Shown here one piece after another: positions 1,776 through 35,739 of a stretch of DNA of 44,769 nt; position 1 is the first letter of the stretch, and every line of letters starts with the position of its first letter. The notes beneath the pieces were generated by a model that was given only the letters and a program-made list of their open reading frames with translations, was not told the origin of the DNA and made no database searches. A program made the translations under genes and the position numbers. This DNA is from a virus (taxonomy: Duplodnaviria > Caudoviricetes), in IMG/VR virus record IMGVR_UViG_3300032224_000682, positions 1-44,769 of that record. One strand, given 5' to 3'.

Positions 1776-4700
1776 ATGGGACTTTTCGACGATCTTCTTG
1801 AGGAAGATAATATACAGACTACTCCGAAGCGCAATGGCTTATTTGATGATCTTCTTGAAGAAGATGACCTTACTTCCAATCAACATCCCGTTGTTGATGA
1901 TTACTTTACTCCACGGCAAATAGCTACTGATAAATCAGAAAAAGATAAATCATTTTTTGGAGTTTTAGATACTGCGTCTGCAATTGGAGAGGCTGCATCT
2001 GATCTTATAACTGGAGTTCCTGCGGCTATGAGAAGAGCGAAGGTTGGTCTTATTCGCCCAGATCAATATAGTCCAGAAGATGTAATTGCATTTGAGGCTG
2101 AAAGAAAAAGGAACGAACAACTTGAAATTGAGCGTCAGAAAAGAATTTCCGCTGGAGAAGAAACATCTGTTGGTTCAGCAATTAGGGAGGCTGGTAGGAG
2201 TCTTGGATTTACTGCCGCCAATATACTTCCCGCGATGGCTGGTGGAGCTGCTGCTGGAGCTATTGCTGGGGCTGCATTTCCAGCAGCTGAAGTTGCAACA
2301 ATTCCTATTGGAGTAATTGCATCTGGAATTGGAGCGGCTGCTGGGTCTGCTCCAGTTGCATACAGAATGGCTGGAGCGCAATTTTTGGATGATGCATTCA
2401 ATCAGCTTGAAAGCAATTCTCTGAAGAAAAACAATAGACCATTAACAGAAGAAGAGAAGGATGCCGCATACAAAGAACTACTTCCAATAGCTCAAAATAC
2501 TGGAATATGGGAAGCTGGACCGGAGGCTGTTGGTAATGCTGTAACATTAGGAGTTGGTAAGTTTGTATTTGGATTCGGGAAAGAAGTTGCAACTGGCATT
2601 GCATCTAATGCAATTAAATCAGCTACAAAAACAATTGGTAAGAAAGTTATAGAAAAGGGAGCCGCAATAGCTGGTGATTTAGCTGTTGAACTTGGTGGTG
2701 AAACAATTACTCAAACACAGCAAGGGTATGATGATGCAAAGGCACAACAATATATTAAAACCGGTAGCACAGCTGGTGCTGTTGATGAATATAAAGGGTT
2801 AGCTGGGTTGGGAAAAGCCTTCAAAGAAATAGCTCCTGCAACAATAGCCACAATGGGATTAATGGGTGCAGTTGCCGGAGGAGCTAAACTAGCATCAAAA
2901 CCATTTTCAAATAAAACGGAAACTGGAGAGGAAGAAAAAAACAATAATGCTGAAAATACAGCGATTGGAGGAGCTATAATTACTGATAATTTAAATAGAA
3001 ACAATTCTCCAGAAACAGCAAGGGCAATACAAGATTTAGCGGCAAATGAACTTTCAGATCAACTTGAGAGTGACTTTGCATCACAACAAGCAGCAGCCGC
3101 TGCACAACAACAACAAAAAAATGCCACTAAAGAAATCATCAAGCCAGAAGGCGTTCGTGAAGAACCTCAAAACGGAACTGAAACACAACCGACCAATGAA
3201 ACAATCGCTCGCCATCGCGTATTCAATCCAGAAGGAAGCAAAGAAAAAGAACAAATAGAGTCAGGAGTTAAGCTCAAAGACGCTTGGTATAATAGGGAGA
3301 TCAACAATCTCTCCTCTCTTTCTGGCCTCTCTAATCAAAGCGTGCATTCTGCTATGCTCCCTGGCATCCAGAATAGCGAGGTTCTCAAGTCTATTGTCAC
3401 ATTTATTCCCGTTGATGTGATGAATGACCTCAGGGTAAGAAACATCCCTGCCGATGAACTCCTCAACAACCCAGATATGCTCAGGGATACTCTTTCCTCT
3501 GATAGTAATAATGACATATTTAGAGGGGTCGTTGGTGCGCTTGGATCGGGAGTAGCAGGATTGAGAACAGAACTTCTTGGAAGACTTGGAAGGAATGACC
3601 TTGAAGGTGCAGCCGCATTGATTGCAGGATTTAAGAATCCCTCCAGTCTTGCGTCTTTTCTTGCTCAAGACGACATTCCTAAATTTACTTCCTCTGTTCC
3701 AGCAGAGTTTACCAACGCACTCTCTAGAGCAGCATCTAGCGGTCTTCTCCCTGTAGGGTCTGACGCTGAAAATATTTCCACAAACTTCGCACGACTTTTT
3801 GATTTGACTGAGCATAGTGCTAAATTAAAAACTAAATTTAAAGAAAAGTCAATAAGCAATCGCATACAAAAAACAAAAAGCGAAGAAGAAAGGCAAATAG
3901 CCAGAGACATTGTAAGCGAGCTGCAGGCTGTATCAAACAATACCGCTACAAACGAGCAGATTGCCCGTCTATCGATGGATGGACTCGTAGATGTCCGTAG
4001 AGGCCAAGCCATCATCAACGAGGACGGAGAGGGCATCCTCGCGCAAGCACAAGCCCCATTGCCAAAGCTCACTCCAGAAGCAAGAGCGGCTGAAGTTGAA
4101 GCTGTAACTGCACCAGAACTAATGCAAAATGGAGTGATTAGAACTCCACTAAAGGGAATTACAGGATCACAACAAGAAATAGAAGATAAGACTTTATTTA
4201 AAAATCAAATTCTATCGTTACCTGATGGAAGTGTTATTGTAACCGATCCAGATGTTACGGGATTAGCGCGACAAGTTCGTGTATCAAAAATAGGTAATGA
4301 GGTGTGGCTTGAAGACGCTAAAACCGAACAGTTGATTTGGAAGCCTGGTTTAAATGAAGGCGCGATTCTTGATATGAAAGGGGGAGTAATAAAAGCTCCC
4401 GCGATCACTAATACTGTGTCCGAACAACCTATCATTGGAGAAAAACCACAAGTTTCTCCGATAGTAGGCGATCAAGTTACAGATACAACTCCAGTAGAAC
4501 AAGTTGCTGAAACTCAAATCGCAGAAGAACCTATCATCTCGGAAAAACAACAAACTTCTGAGATAGTAGGCACTGAAACTGCTGCACCCGAAGTTTCTGC
4601 TATTAAACCACAAGTTCAAGTTACAAATATTGATTCACTAATAGATCAAGGTGGTGGAACTGTAGCAGTTCAAGAAGATGGGAGAGATGTAAAATTCAAA

Positions 4701-7700
4701 CAATTTGGTATTGGAATTGACGGCAATACGGCAGAAATAGCATTTGTTGAACTTGATCCTTCTGAACAAGGAAAAGGCATAGGAATAGAAGCGTATCGTT
4801 CATTAGGAAGTGAGTTAGCTGCTCGTGGAATTATTTTAAGAAGTAGTGGAGCGCAATATGGGCCCGGTCATAACCTTTGGTTAAAATTAGCAAAAGAGGG
4901 GTTAGCAAAAAGAGTGGGGCAGCGTTATCAGTTTGTCGCACCCGCCGAGCCAACTGTCAACCAACAGTTGACGGTTCCTCCTACACAAGCTGCACCAATT
5001 GAAAAATTAAAATCAACTTCTCCTGAATCGCAATTATATATTGATTGGATAAACGAACAAATTGAATTAGGTGCTAAAATTTATCAAGGAACTCCCAATG
5101 AAAGAGCATTGACTCTTGATGATGTTGTAAAGGTATCGCAGTTAAAGACTGGGGCTATTCCAAATACAACAGAAAATTCATTAAAATACGGAGGTTTAGG
5201 AATTGGGAATCAAATCAGTAAATTGATTCAATCAGATTCAAGACTCCAAGGTAGAAATAATTTTGAAATAAAAAATCAAATTGAAACTGGATTATATTCT
5301 GGTAGGGGAATAGAGATTTCTGCTATTGAACCAGTTGCTACAATCGCTCCAGAACCAGTCACCGCGCCAGTAGCAGAACCTTCCCAAACGGGAATAACAC
5401 GGCCTGCCATAGCCGCCGAAGAACAAGTTGTTACCGAGCTGGAAGCTGCACCAGCAGAAGTTCCCGCGCCAGAGGTTGCGCCTAAAGCTATAAAAGATTA
5501 CGCAACTGGAGATGTTAATACTCCATTTTATTTTGAAAATGATTCTTGGAATGTTGATGAATCACGACTTAAAAGCGGTGATGAGGTAATTGAAACTTCA
5601 GACGGCCCAGCCGTATATTCTCGCGCTAATGACGGTAAAGTTACGGCAATTGGAGTAAACGCAAATGGTCGCCAAGTTTATATTGGTGAATCGTCCAATT
5701 CTTTCATGCCGTCTGATTATTCAAATGTTCCAGTTAGTGAAATGTTTTCCGCATTAAAAGGATCACGCACTTATGAATCTGATAGGGCTGGAGATTTATT
5801 TCCAGTAATAGACCAAAAAACAGCAGAAAAACTTATTTCAAAATACCCTCCAACCAATCCCGCCCCCGCAGTATCGGAAACAATAACAGAGCCAGCAGCT
5901 CAACCTACTCCAGCAACTCAACCGGAAGGCATAGCAGTAGGCAACCGAATCAAGTTAGGCAAGAGTCCACAGACATACACCATCGAAGAAGTAATCCCGC
6001 AGACAACAACAGAGAGAGATTTGGGCGAGCAGTATTACTCTGTAAAAAACGAGCGCACGGGCGAGGTACAGGTAGTGGAGGCAATGGATTTGAAGAAGGT
6101 TGGAGGTAAGAGAGCGCGGAAAATGACTGCTTCTACTCCACAGCAAACGCTTTGGTCAATTCCTCAACAAGAAATCTCAAGTGCTGCTACATCAATTAAT
6201 CAGAGCAAAATGCCAGCTACATTTAAGAATGTTAAATGGGAGTCTGGAACAAGAAATGCAGATATTGGCGGAGGAAGATTTGATAATGCAACTGAATACT
6301 TAGCAGGTCTTGGAACGGAAAATGTTATTTACGATCCATATAATCGCAGCCAAGAATCAAATCAAATTGCTGTATCAAAAATATCTGGAGGGCAATCAGA
6401 TACCGCTACAATAAATAATGTTCTTAATGTTATTGCTGAACCAGAATCACGCGACCTTGTTATTCGTCAAGCAGCAGATGCAATAAAGCCAGATGGTAAG
6501 GCTTACTTTTTAATTTACGAAGGAAGCTCAAAAGGGGTTGGATCACAAACTAAATTTGGATGGCAAGAAAATAGAAAAGCAGAAACATATATTGCTGAAA
6601 TTAAAAACCACTTTGGAAATGTAACGCGAAAAGGAAATCTTATTATTGCTGAAAATCCAGTAAAAACAAAAGAACCATTGCGTCAAGCGGCAGAATTTAA
6701 AAACGAGGAAATAGTCACGCCAATTCCAGAAGCAAATCGCTACACATACGAAGAAGCTGTAAGGCTAGTTGACTCCTACTTCGACAAAGAAGGAATACCG
6801 GAAGGCATTGTTATCGTAAATAATACTACTGATCCAGACCTTGAGATGAAGGCTGGATACTTCGTAGATCGTGGACAGATCGTGATTAACCTTGCGTATA
6901 TCGCTAAAGGCGAGAGCCTATCTGACATTATCTCACACGAACTTGGTCATTTCATATTTAGTGATCCGCAGTTCCAAGCTGACTTCAAAGCATTCTGGGA
7001 CTTGATGACACCAGAGGAGCAGGCTGATGCAGATAGAATCATCAATCAATTTTACAATAAAGAAACTGGAGCAATCCAGATGGAGGAGAAACAAGTCCGC
7101 GCATTCATGCAGTTGATCCAAGACAGCAAAGCAATGCCGAAGTGGAGGCAAATTCTGGACAGCATCAAGCGTTGGATTAACAAGTATCTTAAAACAAATT
7201 TTCAAGTAACTGACAGAAACGCATTGGCAGTCCTTGCTGCCGCACATAAACGATTTAAGAGTGGTGAGCGCATCATCCGTGAGATTGATTCTGGAGTACT
7301 GAAGACAGCAGATACGGCACAGGATGCGGAGTATCTTGCAGCGGTTGAGCGTGGAGACATGGAGACTGCACAAAGGATGGTGGATGAAGCGGCAAGGAAG
7401 GCTGGATACAATAGCCCAATGGTTTATCATGGTTCTTCAGATAAACCATTTAATATTTTTAAAACAAAGCGCGGTAAAAAAGGAACAAGAGAAGGCGGTG
7501 CATTTTTTACCCCAACAGAAACATTGGCTAACTATTTTGCAGAAATTTCTCAACAAGTAAAATATGGAGGGATTACAGATAAACCTGGTATAATTTACAA
7601 GGCATATCTTAAAATGGATAATCCTGTTGTAATTGACCAAAAGTTTGAAAATGTAGGTTCAATAGAAGATAAGAACATAAATAGAATCAAAGCTGCAAAG

Positions 7701-10700: not shown

Positions 10701-11423
10701 TTGAATCTCACAAAGAAAACTCCAGAAGACCTTAATTTCGCTGTAGAAGCACTGGGTTCAGCGTTCTTTGCTCTGGCTCAAAGAGGTCCATACGCCGCAT
10801 TCACAAGACCATTGTTTGACGCTTCTAAGGAAGGCAAGATTACCGAAGAGCTTGTTGGTCAAGCTGGGTTCTTTGGTAAAACATTTGTTCCAATATTGGG
10901 GGCATCAGTTGCAAGAAATATATCTGACTTCATCAATGATCCGGTTGATAGGTCTTCATTGGAAGGAGCAATCTATGCCAACACCCCTGTTATTGGCCCA
11001 TGGATGGGTACTAAGGCGCTTAATGCTCTTGGACAACCAATCAGGGCGGATGACTGGGGTGACAAGCTATACAAGCTTGGAGTTCCAGTTGCGTTCTCAT
11101 TTCCTAAAAATACTCCAGAGAATGAACTAAATGAATTGATTCTTAAAAAAGGAGGGGGTCCGTCTATTCCTACAAGATCAAATGCACAGAAGCGACTTGG
11201 TGATGTTATGACAGATAAAGAGTTTGAAACATATGTTCGTGAATATGGACGTGTTGTATCAGACAAGATGTTTAAAAATCGAAAGAAGCTTGAAAATATG
11301 TCAGTTAAAAACTATGATGATGAACTTCAAAAATATGTTACTGGATATTCAATTGACGGAATCAAAGTCACCGGAGCTTCTGATATGGCAGTTCGCGCTG
11401 TAAAGCGATCAAGAAACCAATGA
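1776..11423 (+). CDS. Giant polyvalent virion (ejection) protein with GNAT-like, SAM-methyltransferase-like, HExxH metallopeptidase and ADP-ribosyltransferase-like domains
   Basis: 3215 aa; duplicated GLFDDLLEED at N-terminus; Gly/Ala hydrophobic segments; ELDPSEQGKGIG (GNAT, ~4750); ADIGGGRFD..YDPYNR..NNVLNVI (MTase, ~6260-6430); SHELGH (~6935); VYHGS..GAFFT..GFDGII..YIVFSSEQIKS (ART-like, ~7420-7800). Confidence 0.8.
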   Translation: MGLFDDLLEEDNIQTTPKRNGLFDDLLEEDDLTSNQHPVVDDYFTPRQIATDKSEKDKSFFGVLDTASAIGEAASDLITGVPAAMRRAKVGLIRPDQYSPEDVIAFEAERKRNEQLEIERQKRISAGEETSVGSAIREAGRSLGFTAANILPAMAGGAAAGAIAGAAFPAAEVATIPIGVIASGIGAAAGSAPVAYRMAGAQFLDDAFNQLESNSLKKNNRPLTEEEKDAAYKELLPIAQNTGIWEAGPEAVGNAVTLGVGKFVFGFGKEVATGIASNAIKSATKTIGKKVIEKGAAIAGDLAVELGGETITQTQQGYDDAKAQQYIKTGSTAGAVDEYKGLAGLGKAFKEIAPATIATMGLMGAVAGGAKLASKPFSNKTETGEEEKNNNAENTAIGGAIITDNLNRNNSPETARAIQDLAANELSDQLESDFASQQAAAAAQQQQKNATKEIIKPEGVREEPQNGTETQPTNETIARHRVFNPEGSKEKEQIESGVKLKDAWYNREINNLSSLSGLSNQSVHSAMLPGIQNSEVLKSIVTFIPVDVMNDLRVRNIPADELLNNPDMLRDTLSSDSNNDIFRGVVGALGSGVAGLRTELLGRLGRNDLEGAAALIAGFKNPSSLASFLAQDDIPKFTSSVPAEFTNALSRAASSGLLPVGSDAENISTNFARLFDLTEHSAKLKTKFKEKSISNRIQKTKSEEERQIARDIVSELQAVSNNTATNEQIARLSMDGLVDVRRGQAIINEDGEGILAQAQAPLPKLTPEARAAEVEAVTAPELMQNGVIRTPLKGITGSQQEIEDKTLFKNQILSLPDGSVIVTDPDVTGLARQVRVSKIGNEVWLEDAKTEQLIWKPGLNEGAILDMKGGVIKAPAITNTVSEQPIIGEKPQVSPIVGDQVTDTTPVEQVAETQIAEEPIISEKQQTSEIVGTETAAPEVSAIKPQVQVTNIDSLIDQGGGTVAVQEDGRDVKFKQFGIGIDGNTAEIAFVELDPSEQGKGIGIEAYRSLGSELAARGIILRSSGAQYGPGHNLWLKLAKEGLAKRVGQRYQFVAPAEPTVNQQLTVPPTQAAPIEKLKSTSPESQLYIDWINEQIELGAKIYQGTPNERALTLDDVVKVSQLKTGAIPNTTENSLKYGGLGIGNQISKLIQSDSRLQGRNNFEIKNQIETGLYSGRGIEISAIEPVATIAPEPVTAPVAEPSQTGITRPAIAAEEQVVTELEAAPAEVPAPEVAPKAIKDYATGDVNTPFYFENDSWNVDESRLKSGDEVIETSDGPAVYSRANDGKVTAIGVNANGRQVYIGESSNSFMPSDYSNVPVSEMFSALKGSRTYESDRAGDLFPVIDQKTAEKLISKYPPTNPAPAVSETITEPAAQPTPATQPEGIAVGNRIKLGKSPQTYTIEEVIPQTTTERDLGEQYYSVKNERTGEVQVVEAMDLKKVGGKRARKMTASTPQQTLWSIPQQEISSAATSINQSKMPATFKNVKWESGTRNADIGGGRFDNATEYLAGLGTENVIYDPYNRSQESNQIAVSKISGGQSDTATINNVLNVIAEPESRDLVIRQAADAIKPDGKAYFLIYEGSSKGVGSQTKFGWQENRKAETYIAEIKNHFGNVTRKGNLIIAENPVKTKEPLRQAAEFKNEEIVTPIPEANRYTYEEAVRLVDSYFDKEGIPEGIVIVNNTTDPDLEMKAGYFVDRGQIVINLAYIAKGESLSDIISHELGHFIFSDPQFQADFKAFWDLMTPEEQADADRIINQFYNKETGAIQMEEKQVRAFMQLIQDSKAMPKWRQILDSIKRWINKYLKTNFQVTDRNALAVLAAAHKRFKSGERIIREIDSGVLKTADTAQDAEYLAAVERGDMETAQRMVDEAARKAGYNSPMVYHGSSDKPFNIFKTKRGKKGTREGGAFFTPTETLANYFAEISQQVKYGGITDKPGIIYKAYLKMDNPVVIDQKFENVGSIEDKNINRIKAAKKYGFDGIIWKNTIEPFHPDGVDQYIVFSSEQIKSSDPVTRDDQGNVIPLSQRFRTTSQDIRRMAAEPRREQVAGMERGDIITTPEGIIKQTNEVLRNKFFDGSEVSDEATLNAWNYIEQMLDIKSGAANALAGQINDVADQETNSDTRMGASLFSVSLANYAAKLAAQGDTTMISYLIRRINRMPIDNLAGGISKAAEAMRAKREYNIDGFNTLKTEGKSKVERTAAALFGTDKPGEDQVKAVDDAIKASEDTPIGEPEEVSAEIEKVENRTGRKVIKAIDDKIKENIEGRKNLALEKQKSRPRTPYGVEGQAQSIINQFSTLLSDVPTFTEKQENRIRTIVQQDLRQRPDMKRKQPWTSQLTAKLIDAGVDEAQAQIISDLVWRQHEIKTMDRELKEFQTAAEKGSLTVIIQRIKDTPIEQQQKPGWMQGVIREYLIGSGLSSKAADTAARLYESVISERLAEAKQKAFNETLSKSAPWNNYLSRNSRLGKDALKKIQDAIRTGVLDPTQNVESIIAKENGWSGFSKEQLQRIVQLDNVISNPDTDEVTKAESMHELNSIIVKAKMPVRFKDAIGAYYVGQALMGIPTLTVNIASPIGFSVRNLISDIGRYSFTEPSRIPMAFETFLDSMKSWYNQTSYAFKNQIYLNDVVEYLNGQNVLRELFDKGKAQWAKGEYASGMVNMLVGMTQITGRVLASLDQGAISMLENQNISRYAMEAMKQKNIPQARRKEIANMILDTRRRTYAESIAAGMEKDRSGVLADMAVRTEIAEALAPEGINFKNVLDSAINDSLQAVGRNKTIDTKGIVEESKRLSDAGMLSYLPIEFLQKIASGAANSGPLMQVFSKMLYGFALVPARVFHTTAWYSPYGFIRLGIDKYKKNKGEESPYAMSLQTDLQYKQRLTDAIAGSIVMLGLAALASGSADDDDDKKFKIVITGNGPSYTADRQYFDSWNKKWKPYSIHIVMGDTIIPINIGRGGEALFFPIMLAGALDDWGIKKKLNLTKKTPEDLNFAVEALGSAFFALAQRGPYAAFTRPLFDASKEGKITEELVGQAGFFGKTFVPILGASVARNISDFINDPVDRSSLEGAIYANTPVIGPWMGTKALNALGQPIRADDWGDKLYKLGVPVAFSFPKNTPENELNELILKKGGGPSIPTRSNAQKRLGDVMTDKEFETYVREYGRVVSDKMFKNRKKLENMSVKNYDDELQKYVTGYSIDGIKVTGASDMAVRAVKRSRNQ
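3121..3258 (+). CDS. Small basic phage protein (MPLKK-type) nested in an alternative frame of the giant gene
   Basis: MPLKKSSSQKAFVKNLKTELKHNRPMKQSLAIAYSIQKEAKKKNK resembles a recurrent small phage protein pattern (MPLKK..S..N..E..P.KQA.AIA.S, recalled not searched); A-rich sequence before the ATG. Confidence 0.7.
   Translation: MPLKKSSSQKAFVKNLKTELKHNRPMKQSLAIAYSIQKEAKKKNK
3261..3815 (-). CDS. Zn-finger HNH endonuclease (homing-endonuclease-like) nested antisense in the giant gene
   Basis: Two CxxC...CSxxC modules (CEVC..CSREC, CNQC..CSQSC), then EHIWVVE..VIHHINGNKCDNRLENL..EHSRMH. Confidence 0.9.
   Translation of the reverse strand: MLSQIKKSCEVCGNIFSVRPYREKTARCCSRECVGKLCWNRGSKFRNVVLSKKRRKTGGILKSCNQCGCTFKVIPSKSSKKFCSQSCYSRSKRTNDPSKYVIITIRGKSIPEHIWVVEEFIGRDVSYPEVIHHINGNKCDNRLENLAILDAREHSRMHALIREARKRGEIVDLPIIPSVFELNS
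3824..3852 (-). promoter_or_regulatory. Sigma70-like promoter for the antisense HNH gene
   Basis: Minus strand TTGACT-17 nt-TTTAAT-8 nt-ATG(3815), lying in coding sequence of the giant gene. Confidence 0.65.
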
Positions 11424-21526: not shown

Positions 21527-22714
21527 ATGTCACAATATAATCTCGCTGATGTAAACAATCAGCTTCAACAGGAAGCCGGACGTATCGGTGAAATGATCTC
21601 CGCTAAACTCATCGCAACTGACCCTTGGAATCGTCTTGTCAAACAAGACACCTTCCCTGCTGGAATGGGCGAATCTATCCAGACCCTCATTCAAGAGCGT
21701 ACAACCGTTCCTAACGCATCCTCGACTGCGTGGGAAGACGTTGGCACCAACGATGGAACTGGCAATACCTGTAACCCAACTCCTCAAGTTGTTGAGTTTG
21801 CTCGCACACTCAAGAGCTACAACCTCCAGCAGTCTGCTATCCGTTCTCCTGGTTTCTGCGTGAACGATCTTCGCACTGCGTGGAAGGCTGAAGAGCAGCT
21901 TGCTGGTGAAGTCAAGGTTCTTAAAGAGAACTCTCAGTGGTTCTGGAGCAACCGTTATCGTGATGAGTTTTCTCGTCTCGCTGGCAACAAGGTTGTGACT
22001 GACGTGAATGATACTTTGGCGATGTCCACAAGCACATCGAACCAAGCGTTCCCAGCAGCTGCTCCTGCTTACGCCCTTGACCAAGGTATCCTTGATCAGT
22101 TCTATCTCGACCTTTCCCGCGATGCGGCTGAGGGTAACTACGCGATTGTTGATGGTGAGCCTCAGTATGCTCTCATCTGCTCTCCTGAAACGAGCAACTA
22201 CCTCAAGAAACAGAACGCTGATATCCGTCAGGACTTGCGTTTCTCTTCGCAGGTTGATGAGCTTATCAAGCCATTTGGTGCTGCATTCAGCTACAGCGGA
22301 TTTGTCCACTTGGTTGATCGTCAGGCCCCTCGTTACACCTTCACTGGTGGCGCGTTTGTTCGTGTGCCGTTCTTCACTACTGCCCCAGCTGGTACTGGAT
22401 TGAAGGCTGTTGTGAACCCAGCATACCGCACCGCTCCATATGAAGTGTCGTTCATCTACAACCCACACGTCTATACCTCACGTGTTGCACAGGTCATCAC
22501 AAGCCCAGGCTCTGGTCTGAAGTTTGACCCTGTTAACTATCGTGGTGAATTCATGTGGATCAACAACAAGGACAATGCCAACAACATCCTCGGTGTTAAT
22601 GGCTACTTCTATGCCTTGTTCATGCAGGGTTCTCAGCCTAAGCGCACCGAATGGGGTTATGCTATCATGCACCTTCGTTGCAATCCTGCTACTCTGTATC
22701 AGTCCTGCTCGTAA
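21527..22714 (+). CDS. Major capsid protein
   Basis: 395 aa, strongly biased codons (highly expressed), follows scaffold, flanked by terminators. Confidence 0.8.
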   Translation: MSQYNLADVNNQLQQEAGRIGEMISAKLIATDPWNRLVKQDTFPAGMGESIQTLIQERTTVPNASSTAWEDVGTNDGTGNTCNPTPQVVEFARTLKSYNLQQSAIRSPGFCVNDLRTAWKAEEQLAGEVKVLKENSQWFWSNRYRDEFSRLAGNKVVTDVNDTLAMSTSTSNQAFPAAAPAYALDQGILDQFYLDLSRDAAEGNYAIVDGEPQYALICSPETSNYLKKQNADIRQDLRFSSQVDELIKPFGAAFSYSGFVHLVDRQAPRYTFTGGAFVRVPFFTTAPAGTGLKAVVNPAYRTAPYEVSFIYNPHVYTSRVAQVITSPGSGLKFDPVNYRGEFMWINNKDNANNILGVNGYFYALFMQGSQPKRTEWGYAIMHLRCNPATLYQSCS

Positions 22715-34282: not shown

Positions 34283-35716
34283 ATGTGGATACTACCATCA
34301 CAACTCTTGAAATGTGCGCCGGATATGGAGGCATTGGACTTGGAATCAAAAACATCTTTGGCGAGCGATTGCGAACCATTGCATATTGTGAGCTTGAGGG
34401 GTTCGCTCAAGCCAATCTCATCAGTAAGATGGAAAAAGGACTCTTGGATGCAGCACCTATATGGAGCGATCTTAAAACCTTTCCATACGAATCGTTTCAC
34501 AGACTGGTGGACATCCTCATTGCGGGATACCCATGTCAGCCATTTAGCGCAGCAGGAAAGCGAGCAGGTAAAGAAGACCCAAGACATCTTTGGCCTTGGA
34601 TCGCAGACGGAATTCGACTTCTTCAACCAAGAATGTGCTTCTTTGAAAACGTCGAAGGACACATCTCGTTGGGACTCTCAACAGTCATCAGTGATCTGGA
34701 AGAACTGGGTTATAAAAGTTCGTTCGGAATATTCAGTGCGAGTGAAGTTGGCGCAGTCCACCAAAGGAAAAGAGTGTTTATCATGGCCCACCGCAACGGC
34801 GAGGGATTTTGCAGGGAAAAGTGGTTCTGGCAGGCAGGGGCGCAAGGGGCATCCAGCGGATACTCTACCGAATGCGGTAGCTCAATGGCCGACACCAACA
34901 GCAGGAGAATGTCTGGATCAAGGAACGAATTGGGAAACGCTGGCGAGGCTGGACAAGGGTGGTCGAATACTTCGCAGGATGGCATCATTGGAAATGTCTG
35001 GCCATCACGCCCCGGTCAACCACAATACGCATGGGAACCGCCAAGGGTCGTGGCTAACTCCAAACACGATGGACTCACTTCCTGTCAGATCGGAGGAAGC
35101 ACTTGCGAGACAATACCAGAAAAACAGATTTGGGAGGACAACTCACTCAACATTGAGAGAGCAAGTTGCATTGCCACCACCAAGTCAGATGGCATGGGCA
35201 ACTCCTCGCAGTTGTTCTGCTATGGCAGCAACAATAACAGAGGAATCAGTGAACAAGGAGAACAGATTCCCGAATCTAGAAACTCAAGTTGGGAGGCAGC
35301 AATGGGCAACGCCAAGAGCAGGGAAAACAACGGACGAGAATCCAGAGACATGGCTGAAGCGTCAAGCCAACGGGGATGTTGCGACGATGCCACTAACGGC
35401 GCAAGTGAAAGTGAAACAATGGGCAACGCCACGAATAGGCGGCGAGGAAAAAGCGGAGACGAGACTTGCGAGGGGGCGGGAAATTGGACTTCACGGACAA
35501 GTGGGAGCAATGACGAACTCAGCAAAACTCAACAGCCAATGGGTTACTCAACTCATGGGGCTGAATCTCGGTTGGGTATCTCCGAGCTGTCCGGCCTCAG
35601 TGATTCTGAATTGGCCGAAATTCGTGAGTGGATGGTGCGCTGCGACAACAGAACAGATGAACTGCGATTGCTCGGCAATGGAGTTGTCCCGGCAACAGCA
35701 ACCAGAGCTTTTCTGA
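34283..35716 (+). CDS. Overlapping-frame methyltransferase partner (beta-like) with motif IX and six WxTP-type repeats
   Basis: 477 open codons; WPTAT, WPTPT, WLTPN and three WATPR; KLNSQWVTQLMGLNLGW resembles motif IX. Confidence 0.75.
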   Translation: MWILPSQLLKCAPDMEALDLESKTSLASDCEPLHIVSLRGSLKPISSVRWKKDSWMQHLYGAILKPFHTNRFTDWWTSSLRDTHVSHLAQQESEQVKKTQDIFGLGSQTEFDFFNQECASLKTSKDTSRWDSQQSSVIWKNWVIKVRSEYSVRVKLAQSTKGKECLSWPTATARDFAGKSGSGRQGRKGHPADTLPNAVAQWPTPTAGECLDQGTNWETLARLDKGGRILRRMASLEMSGHHAPVNHNTHGNRQGSWLTPNTMDSLPVRSEEALARQYQKNRFGRTTHSTLREQVALPPPSQMAWATPRSCSAMAATITEESVNKENRFPNLETQVGRQQWATPRAGKTTDENPETWLKRQANGDVATMPLTAQVKVKQWATPRIGGEEKAETRLARGREIGLHGQVGAMTNSAKLNSQWVTQLMGLNLGWVSPSCPASVILNWPKFVSGWCAATTEQMNCDCSAMELSRQQQPELF

Positions 35717-35739
35717 CACTATTGGAGAAACTAAAATGA
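34285..35739 (+). CDS. C5 cytosine DNA methyltransferase, catalytic (alpha-like) polypeptide lacking motif IX
   Basis: Motif I CAGYGG, IV GYPCQPFS, VI FENV, VIII QRKRVFI, X LLGNGVVP; GTG start. Confidence 0.85.
   Translation: MDTTITTLEMCAGYGGIGLGIKNIFGERLRTIAYCELEGFAQANLISKMEKGLLDAAPIWSDLKTFPYESFHRLVDILIAGYPCQPFSAAGKRAGKEDPRHLWPWIADGIRLLQPRMCFFENVEGHISLGLSTVISDLEELGYKSSFGIFSASEVGAVHQRKRVFIMAHRNGEGFCREKWFWQAGAQGASSGYSTECGSSMADTNSRRMSGSRNELGNAGEAGQGWSNTSQDGIIGNVWPSRPGQPQYAWEPPRVVANSKHDGLTSCQIGGSTCETIPEKQIWEDNSLNIERASCIATTKSDGMGNSSQLFCYGSNNNRGISEQGEQIPESRNSSWEAAMGNAKSRENNGRESRDMAEASSQRGCCDDATNGASESETMGNATNRRRGKSGDETCEGAGNWTSRTSGSNDELSKTQQPMGYSTHGAESRLGISELSGLSDSELAEIREWMVRCDNRTDELRLLGNGVVPATATRAFLTLLEKLK

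Follow-up and report, generated by a model that had tools for sequence, protein, structure and literature searches.

The window analysed here, a stretch of 44,769 nt spanning the whole of the IMG/VR virus record IMGVR_UViG_3300032224_000682 (Caudoviricetes), contains a giant polyvalent protein gene in which an HNH endonuclease gene lies on the opposite strand, next to a small gene nested in the +1 frame. The features of this locus are collected in Table 1.

Table 1. Features of the giant gene and of the element inserted in it (window coordinates)
Feature	Position	Strand	Basis
Giant polyvalent protein gene, 3215 aa	1776..11423	+	Stop-free across the whole insertion; ART-PolyVal (Pfam)
Small basic gene phrog_2423, 45 aa, at +1 relative to the giant gene; likely target of homing	3121..3258	+	PHROG
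Whole mobile unit	3204..3866		Delimited from its near-identical copies in different giant-gene backgrounds; net gain of 642 nt (214 codons)
Recoded 3' end of the small gene, element-borne, at the left border	3204..3258	+	Near-identity with P0047 and P0065 begins here
HNH endonuclease gene encoding 184 aa, in which two Cys-rich modules accompany an HNH_3 domain	3261..3815	-	Pfam, PHROG
Promoter-like site, read as host protein: TTGACT (3847-3852), TAATTT (3822-3827)	3822..3852	-	Sequence, family pattern
Alternative -10 hexamer TTTAAT	3824-3829	-	Sequence-only reading
Remnant of the small gene's original 3' end (AIAY...KKKGK-stop), +1 frame	3856..3900	+	Imperfect repeat of 3211-3258

The giant protein carries an ART-PolyVal domain at residues 1882-2010 (E 2e-15, 58 bits against a Pfam cut-off of 31), and is therefore a polyvalent protein, that is, a large multidomain phage protein with polyvalent-type domains. 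According to the available text of PMC5512222, the polyvalent proteins of phages are packaged in the virion, and by analogy with that literature the giant protein may be packaged as well. Its homologs are mosaic along their entire length, and the insertion site lies within a Glu/Ala/Gln/Thr-rich stretch. Two of these homologs, P0047 (3036 aa) and P0065 (3562 aa), are each called as a single protein across the insert, and a third, P0048, is called from a Met within the insert, its cluster mate P0065 being full length. The other alternative-frame ORFs of the giant gene (6936-7430, 5786-6106 and 10747-11127) gave no PHROG match.

The antisense ORF matches HNH_3 with an E value of 1.1e-10 and 41.4 bits, against a curated Pfam cut-off of 24.8, and it also matches many PHROG HNH families; an NCBIfam search returned nothing significant. 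Its His-His...Asn...His motif is intact, with H132, H133, N141, N145 and H154 invariant in 10 aligned relatives. The ORF is in exact codon register with the giant ORF, which has no internal stop. An earlier reading of the window, made from the sequence only, had described an intact 184-aa HNH ORF, antisense and codon-aligned within an open 3215-aa ORF, and the Pfam search and the ORF check bear this description out. That reading had also pointed to the lack of TTA, CTA and TCA codons in the HNH gene. The codons are indeed missing (TCA from all 20 Ser codons, TTA and CTA from all 10 Leu codons; P ~3e-5, computed from the codon usage of 21 window ORFs), although their absence restates the openness of the host frame and is thus not independent evidence. 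The antisense in-register layout is cheap to keep, since only TCA, TTA and CTA are barred to the HNH gene and each of them has synonyms. The length of the ORF is unexceptional, the open stretch in the antisense frame being 564 nt against 504 nt for the next-longest.

A structure model of the HNH protein (mean pLDDT 81, from a 10-sequence alignment) displays a strand-strand-helix arrangement at residues 129-166. The best VIA match of residues 99-163 is the intron-encoded I-HmuI, with a middling Z score of 5.7 and an rmsd of 2.4 over 64 aligned residues, while Foldseek returned no match at E 0.001, nor did a PDB profile search yield a significant one. Support from structure for the beta-beta-alpha-metal fold of HNH nucleases is therefore middling. 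The two proteins share the HNH_3 motif, but the window HNH differs from I-HmuI (PDB 1u3e) by its two N-terminal Cys-rich modules and by the lack of an intron. DNA searches for close relatives of the HNH gene found no near-identical copy, P0001 being 64% identical, and the exact HNH protein is missing from a collection of 15 billion proteins in which the giant protein is present.

The small gene, which ends 2 nt before the HNH stop so that the two genes lie tail to tail, matches the phrog_2423 profile with an E value of 6e-14 over 44 of 52 positions. In the best 80 of 117 phrog_2423 loci, an ORF exceeding 1300 codons encloses the gene at +1 in 13 cases, the gene makes up the N-terminus of a long ORF in four, and no long ORF surrounds it in the rest. 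We compared 12 nested copies, namely the window and 11 loci, with L136 and L195 omitted for indels and two of the copies identical. The differences per site amount to 0.17, 0.09 and 0.38 at the first, second and third codon positions of the small gene itself, and the copies are on average 83% identical when read in its frame but 54% when read in that of the host. A T that would create a host stop occurs at none of 197 junctions in the nested small genes, compared with 108 of 464 in 31 free-standing copies hand-picked by the analyst, 30 of which contain a stop in the corresponding host frame. The codon-position pattern and the junction counts together indicate that the small gene is under selection, and that the host frame around it is kept open.

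Our comparison with an insert-free allele showed how the mobile unit is built. The closest insert-free relative, L008 (= L132), is 95% identical to the window over 1.35 kb upstream, and the net insertion measured against it is a multiple of three. Within the small gene, 82 of the first 84 nt are identical to this relative, but only 37 of the last 54 nt, and the stretch 3872-3910 beyond the HNH gene is again identical to it. The remnant of the original end is one codon short. These observations, a recoded 3' end supplied by the element and a remnant of the old one left behind, indicate that the element entered near codons 27-31 of the small gene, and the likely target is therefore the nested small gene rather than the giant protein's own code. 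The sequence-only reading had placed the element at 3261..3852; this interval holds the HNH gene, but the element is wider (approximately 3204-3866), and the nested small gene had been overlooked.

A different giant gene, that of L141 (= L020), harbors an HNH gene 41-47% identical to that of the window, in the same register, behind the same nested gene and with its own remnant. Of the 13 nested loci in the best 80 of 117, no other has an HNH next to the small gene. Among the antisense HNHs scanned for a neighbouring small gene, a set without L207-L222, those of L024 and L121-L125 had none, and we consequently propose this target for the window's site only. In P0057, the usual downstream sequence immediately follows the element's recoded end, without an intervening HNH. 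Such a join matches what the loss of the HNH gene by recombination between the repeats would leave; alternatively, P0057 could represent the allele from which the recoded end was captured.

Filled and empty alleles coexist at this site. A search with the downstream flank retrieved seven viral loci, five of which (L007-L011) align on both sides of the site and are without the segment. In a protein search with host residues 440-770, the window's own protein being excluded, the insert was missing from 16 of 18 homologous giant proteins and present in two (P0047 and P0048). Homologs without the ~200-aa segment, which the sequence-only reading had anticipated, thus exist. The filled alleles are those of the window, P0047 and P0048/P0065, and their occurrence next to empty ones is the pattern of a homing element.

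The element is also more alike between its carriers than are its flanks, another trait of homing elements. In the host frame, P0047 is identical to the window at 175 of 184 residues over the HNH gene (~95%), whereas the right flank matches at 42 of 70 residues and identity drops on the left of the element too. P0065 combines a divergent N-terminal module with a near-identical element that is open throughout, and near-identical copies are therefore found in two otherwise divergent giant-gene backgrounds. Given that the homologs are mosaic along the whole giant gene, ordinary recombination could also carry such a block. With regard to selection, 10 of the 13 distinct host-frame substitutions within the HNH gene (P0047, P0048) can be explained by single changes silent in the HNH frame, against an expectation of 24-37% (P 8e-5 to 4e-3), in a test on protein sequences alone, with n=13, to which host-silent changes are invisible and in which the DNA changes were inferred by the shortest route. 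Moreover, when 19 antisense elements are compared, the HNH frame is the more conserved of the two in the 14 closest pairs, with an identity of, for example, 67% against 52% for the host frame. The variation spares the HNH frame, which favours purifying selection there.

The promoter described in the sequence-only reading, TTGACT-17-TTTAAT-8-ATG, is present as written and is read as host protein. Its -10 box, however, is more likely TAATTT, 2 nt away, which lies 6 nt before the HNH ATG and 19 nt from TTGACT, while TTTAAT, at 17 nt from TTGACT and 8 nt before the ATG, is without the conserved A of the -10. A scan for consensus promoters did not list the TTGACT site (two sites found versus 3.3 expected), and terminator-like hits near the element were at chance level (3 versus 2.1). 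The family pattern is more telling. We examined 19 elements, the window and 18 others from 16 loci, after dropping L207 and L024, which have no suitable ATG, and used as control 296 further antisense ATGs lying in register in the host genes concerned. A TAnnnT hexamer ends 6-7 nt before the ATG in 12 of the 19 elements versus 6 of the 296 controls, and a -35-like hexamer is located 16-19 nt upstream of TAnnnT in 11 of 19 versus 1 of 296. As the element starts were chosen and the -35 rule was set after the data had been seen, and as some elements are related, the nominal P of ~1e-13 is too good, but the contrast is still large. Four of the seven elements without a TAnnnT box have a Shine-Dalgarno-like word instead. 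Similar short-leader sites are recognizable by eye before ordinary genes of the window phage, such as TTGACC-16-TAGAAT-9-ATG before 39337. The box pattern of the family and these short-leader sites make it likely that the HNH is made from a leaderless antisense transcript off the embedded promoter. At both the window (3847-3852) and the right flank of L141, the -35-like hexamer is the reverse complement of a codon pair with CAA in the small-gene remnant, and this overlap suggests that the promoter may be partly built from target DNA.

We estimate a probability of about 0.8 that the unit is a selfish homing element, an HNH gene placed antisense and in register in a linker of the giant gene, read through as ~214 residues, and targeting the nested small gene. 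According to this model, a leaderless antisense transcript from the promoter written into the host frame would yield the HNH protein. During co-infection, this protein would introduce a nick or a break into insert-free alleles, around codons 27-31 of the small gene, and repair would then copy the whole unit into the empty allele. Thanks to its recoded end, the small gene would stay intact and the filled allele would be immune. The ~214 junk residues would be read through in the giant protein and not spliced out; we propose that the giant protein tolerates them because the site is a hypervariable linker. The insert-free alleles, the variation sparing the HNH frame and the divergent backgrounds all support what the sequence-only reading had put forward, namely a splicing-free HNH whose antisense, in-frame insertion in a linker of a polyvalent protein is tolerated and persists.

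Alternatively, the HNH may be expressed without homing, as a passenger or as a domesticated helper, for example in DNA packaging, that is shuffled by general recombination. The mosaic structure of the giant genes would allow such shuffling, phage HNH proteins can aid terminases (in the available text of PMC11855218), and purifying selection on the HNH frame suits any useful function. We nevertheless consider this explanation unlikely, because the element is missing from most relatives and identity falls sharply at both of its borders, because the unit brings a recoded copy of the sequence that it displaces, and because a second, divergent HNH (L141) occupies the same site. It is also conceivable that the giant frame is open and the insert is absent from the working protein, owing to an internal translation restart or to proteolytic removal. 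The annotation of P0048 from a Met inside the insert could reflect a restart, and some polyvalent proteins undergo proteolysis (PMC5512222, available text). The structure model of the host-frame segment is helical with low confidence (pLDDT 57), which would be in keeping with a discarded insert but is too weak to tell order from disorder. Against this very unlikely scenario, neither the window nor P0047 or P0065 has a stop in the frame across the insert, whose net length is a multiple of three, so that read-through is needed at least in translation; proteolysis at a later stage would, in any case, be compatible with a homing element.

The remaining alternative, that the unit is an unrecognised self-splicing intron or intein and that the open host frame is incidental, appears scarcely plausible. 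Most HNH homing endonucleases are carried by introns, an antisense endonuclease that has a promoter of its own resides in an rDNA intron (PMC3073962) and others reside in inteins (10.1101/2025.01.02.630785), as far as the available texts of both reports go, and the related giant protein of L121 has a Hint domain elsewhere. Nevertheless, cmscan of 2500-4700 against Rfam found no intron match, the only hit at E values up to 1 being one chance snoRNA, and thus no group I or II ribozyme core was recognized around the HNH ORF. Pfam detected no Hint or intein domain in the giant protein. Neither end of an intein is discernible, as host residues 471-720 contain no Cys and the whole giant protein contains no HN[CST] motif, so that the defining set of a Hint domain, an N-terminal Cys/Ser and a C-terminal His-Asn before Cys/Ser/Thr is lacking from the window element. 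These Rfam, Pfam and end-motif checks uphold the statement of the sequence-only reading that no intron or intein signature is visible. Furthermore, only ~50 nt on each side of the ORF would be available for a ribozyme, and these are taken by the recoded end and the promoter-like site, and an intron does not need a stop-free frame (P ~3e-5).

The antisense in-register layout of the window recurs in other phages. Searches based on the HNH sequence revealed two antisense in-register cases (L020 and L024). A search with the host-frame "shadow" yielded 22 loci, of which 17 have an intact HNH antisense and in register in an ORF of 667 to more than 4000 codons, one has a same-strand HNH in a shifted frame, and four have an HNH that is not nested; a host-frame translation search detects this register only and is silent on the others. 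No annotated phage record was matched by the shadow search. At the protein level, phmmer with the window's host-frame segment matched 33 proteins, 26 of them longer than 1000 aa. Two giant genes, those of L122 (5914-6492 and 6904-7617) and L215 (1491-2963 and 3327-3842), each contain two antisense in-register HNH genes. The host ORFs of L121-L125, L141 and L024 all encode LPD, ART-PolyVal or ddrB-ParB domains, and related host genes carry LPD22, LPD23, LPD37 and LPD38. None of 545 Ser and Leu codons in the 19 elements is a forbidden one, but these elements were picked for lying in open frames, and the count is therefore not independent evidence. A quick tree groups the 21 antisense elements together (5 changes, against 19 when shuffled) without deciding between one origin and several. 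The antisense class in giant, probably virion-packaged proteins comprises at least 18 phage contigs besides that of the window.

The strategy is not new in kind. HNHs hidden in this manner were described in 2025 for the ShiLan domain and for Pacc40 gp60 (PMC11855218), and, as far as the available text of that report goes, they share with the window element a ~200-codon insertion, an HNH and zinc-finger ORF in another frame, an open host frame, the lack of a splicing element and a patchy distribution; leaderless translation was proposed there as well. In a tblastn search, the window HNH matched the ShiLan-methylase inserts with 26-28% identity over 73-85% of its length (E ~1e-5), and is by its sequence a distant relative of the HNHs of these inserts. 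The window element therefore works like ShiLan, its host frame being open over an other-frame HNH without a splicing element, but it is not a ShiLan domain proper, which is encoded on the same strand, in the third frame, in a dispensable DNA methylase. The window element, in contrast, is antisense and in register, with its own promoter-like site, a giant polyvalent host and a recoded end for a third, nested gene. The main text of PMC11855218 does not contain the words antisense, opposite strand, reverse or promoter. Non-canonical inteins in phage genes carry anti-sense LAGLIDADG or VSR-like endonucleases (10.1101/2025.01.02.630785, available text), and these also represent opposite-strand endonucleases in an open host frame; there, however, an intein splicing domain encloses the nuclease, while the window has no such domain and its nuclease is an HNH.

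The recoded end has a counterpart among fungal mitochondrial genes. A partial duplicate restores the end of the invaded gene there and confers immunity. The available text of PMC7487136 describes such free-standing endonuclease genes at atp9, atp6 and cox1, each adjoining a partial duplicate of the neighbour gene, as in the window; the difference is that the invaded small gene and the endonuclease of the window are both inside a third, larger open frame. The polyvalent proteins of PMC5512222 share ART-PolyVal with the window's host and LPD domains with related hosts, and nested or antisense genes are not described in the available text of that study, in which "HNH" occurs once. In the open-access literature, we found no report of an intein-free antisense HNH in a giant phage gene, nor of the combination of an antisense position, the absence of an intein or intron, a polyvalent host, an embedded leaderless promoter and a nested target.

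On balance, we favour the view that the window exemplifies a widespread, unannotated antisense class of splicing-free homing endonucleases in giant polyvalent genes, always in register and each writing a leaderless promoter into the host code. In the window, the endonuclease would home on a nested gene and rebuild its end, such that three selected genes share one stretch and empty, filled and HNH-lost alleles are found side by side. This class would widen one published case of a splicing-free hidden HNH, on the same strand in a dispensable methylase, to antisense genes in giant hosts. It has a bearing on annotation, as gene callers drop the HNH gene, and the antisense shadow is recorded as an apparent conserved domain of giant proteins. 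The site also offers a compact test system for the origin and persistence of overlapping genes, with a defined predicted target, a predicted start of transcription, and alleles that are empty, filled or devoid of the HNH.

Several further observations concern the loci fetched in this work. In L024 (1050-1120), L123 (6390-6500) and L125 (6345-6473), the antisense HNH lies just upstream, in the host frame, of a conserved SS(F/W)LHES motif, which is likely a second shared target site in hosts of the L023-L025 type. Approximately 20 further HNHs lie on the same strand in a shifted frame of ORFs of at least 400 codons, which is the ShiLan layout; L050, L056, L059, L069, L071 and L074 are among these loci. 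In L015, L039 (two), L041 and L042 (two), the HNH is outside a long ORF, yet the in-register antisense frame is stop-free. Four of these HNHs are at 37-46% GC, and three of the antisense ORFs were scanned and had no PHROG match. They are possibly former elements, or elements embedded in short hosts. In L180, L183, L185 and L186 (7001-12163), a long ORF begins with the phrog_2423 peptide, and that of L180 encodes 1726 aa with LPD23 and a weak ART-PolyVal match. This N-terminal fusion hints that the peptide may serve as a packaging or DNA-binding tag.

Elsewhere in the window, two long antisense ORFs within larger genes, 6933-7430 (-) of 165 aa and 21530-22468 (-) of 312 aa, have no PHROG match and are probably shadows. 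Finally, the ORFs 34283-35716 and 34285-35739 (+), which encode 477 and 484 aa, cover nearly the same stretch in different frames of one strand, and both match DNA methyltransferase families (phrog_1008 for the one; phrog_363 and Pfam DNA_methylase for the other). Their arrangement is reminiscent of two-polypeptide C5 methyltransferases such as M.EcoHK31I.
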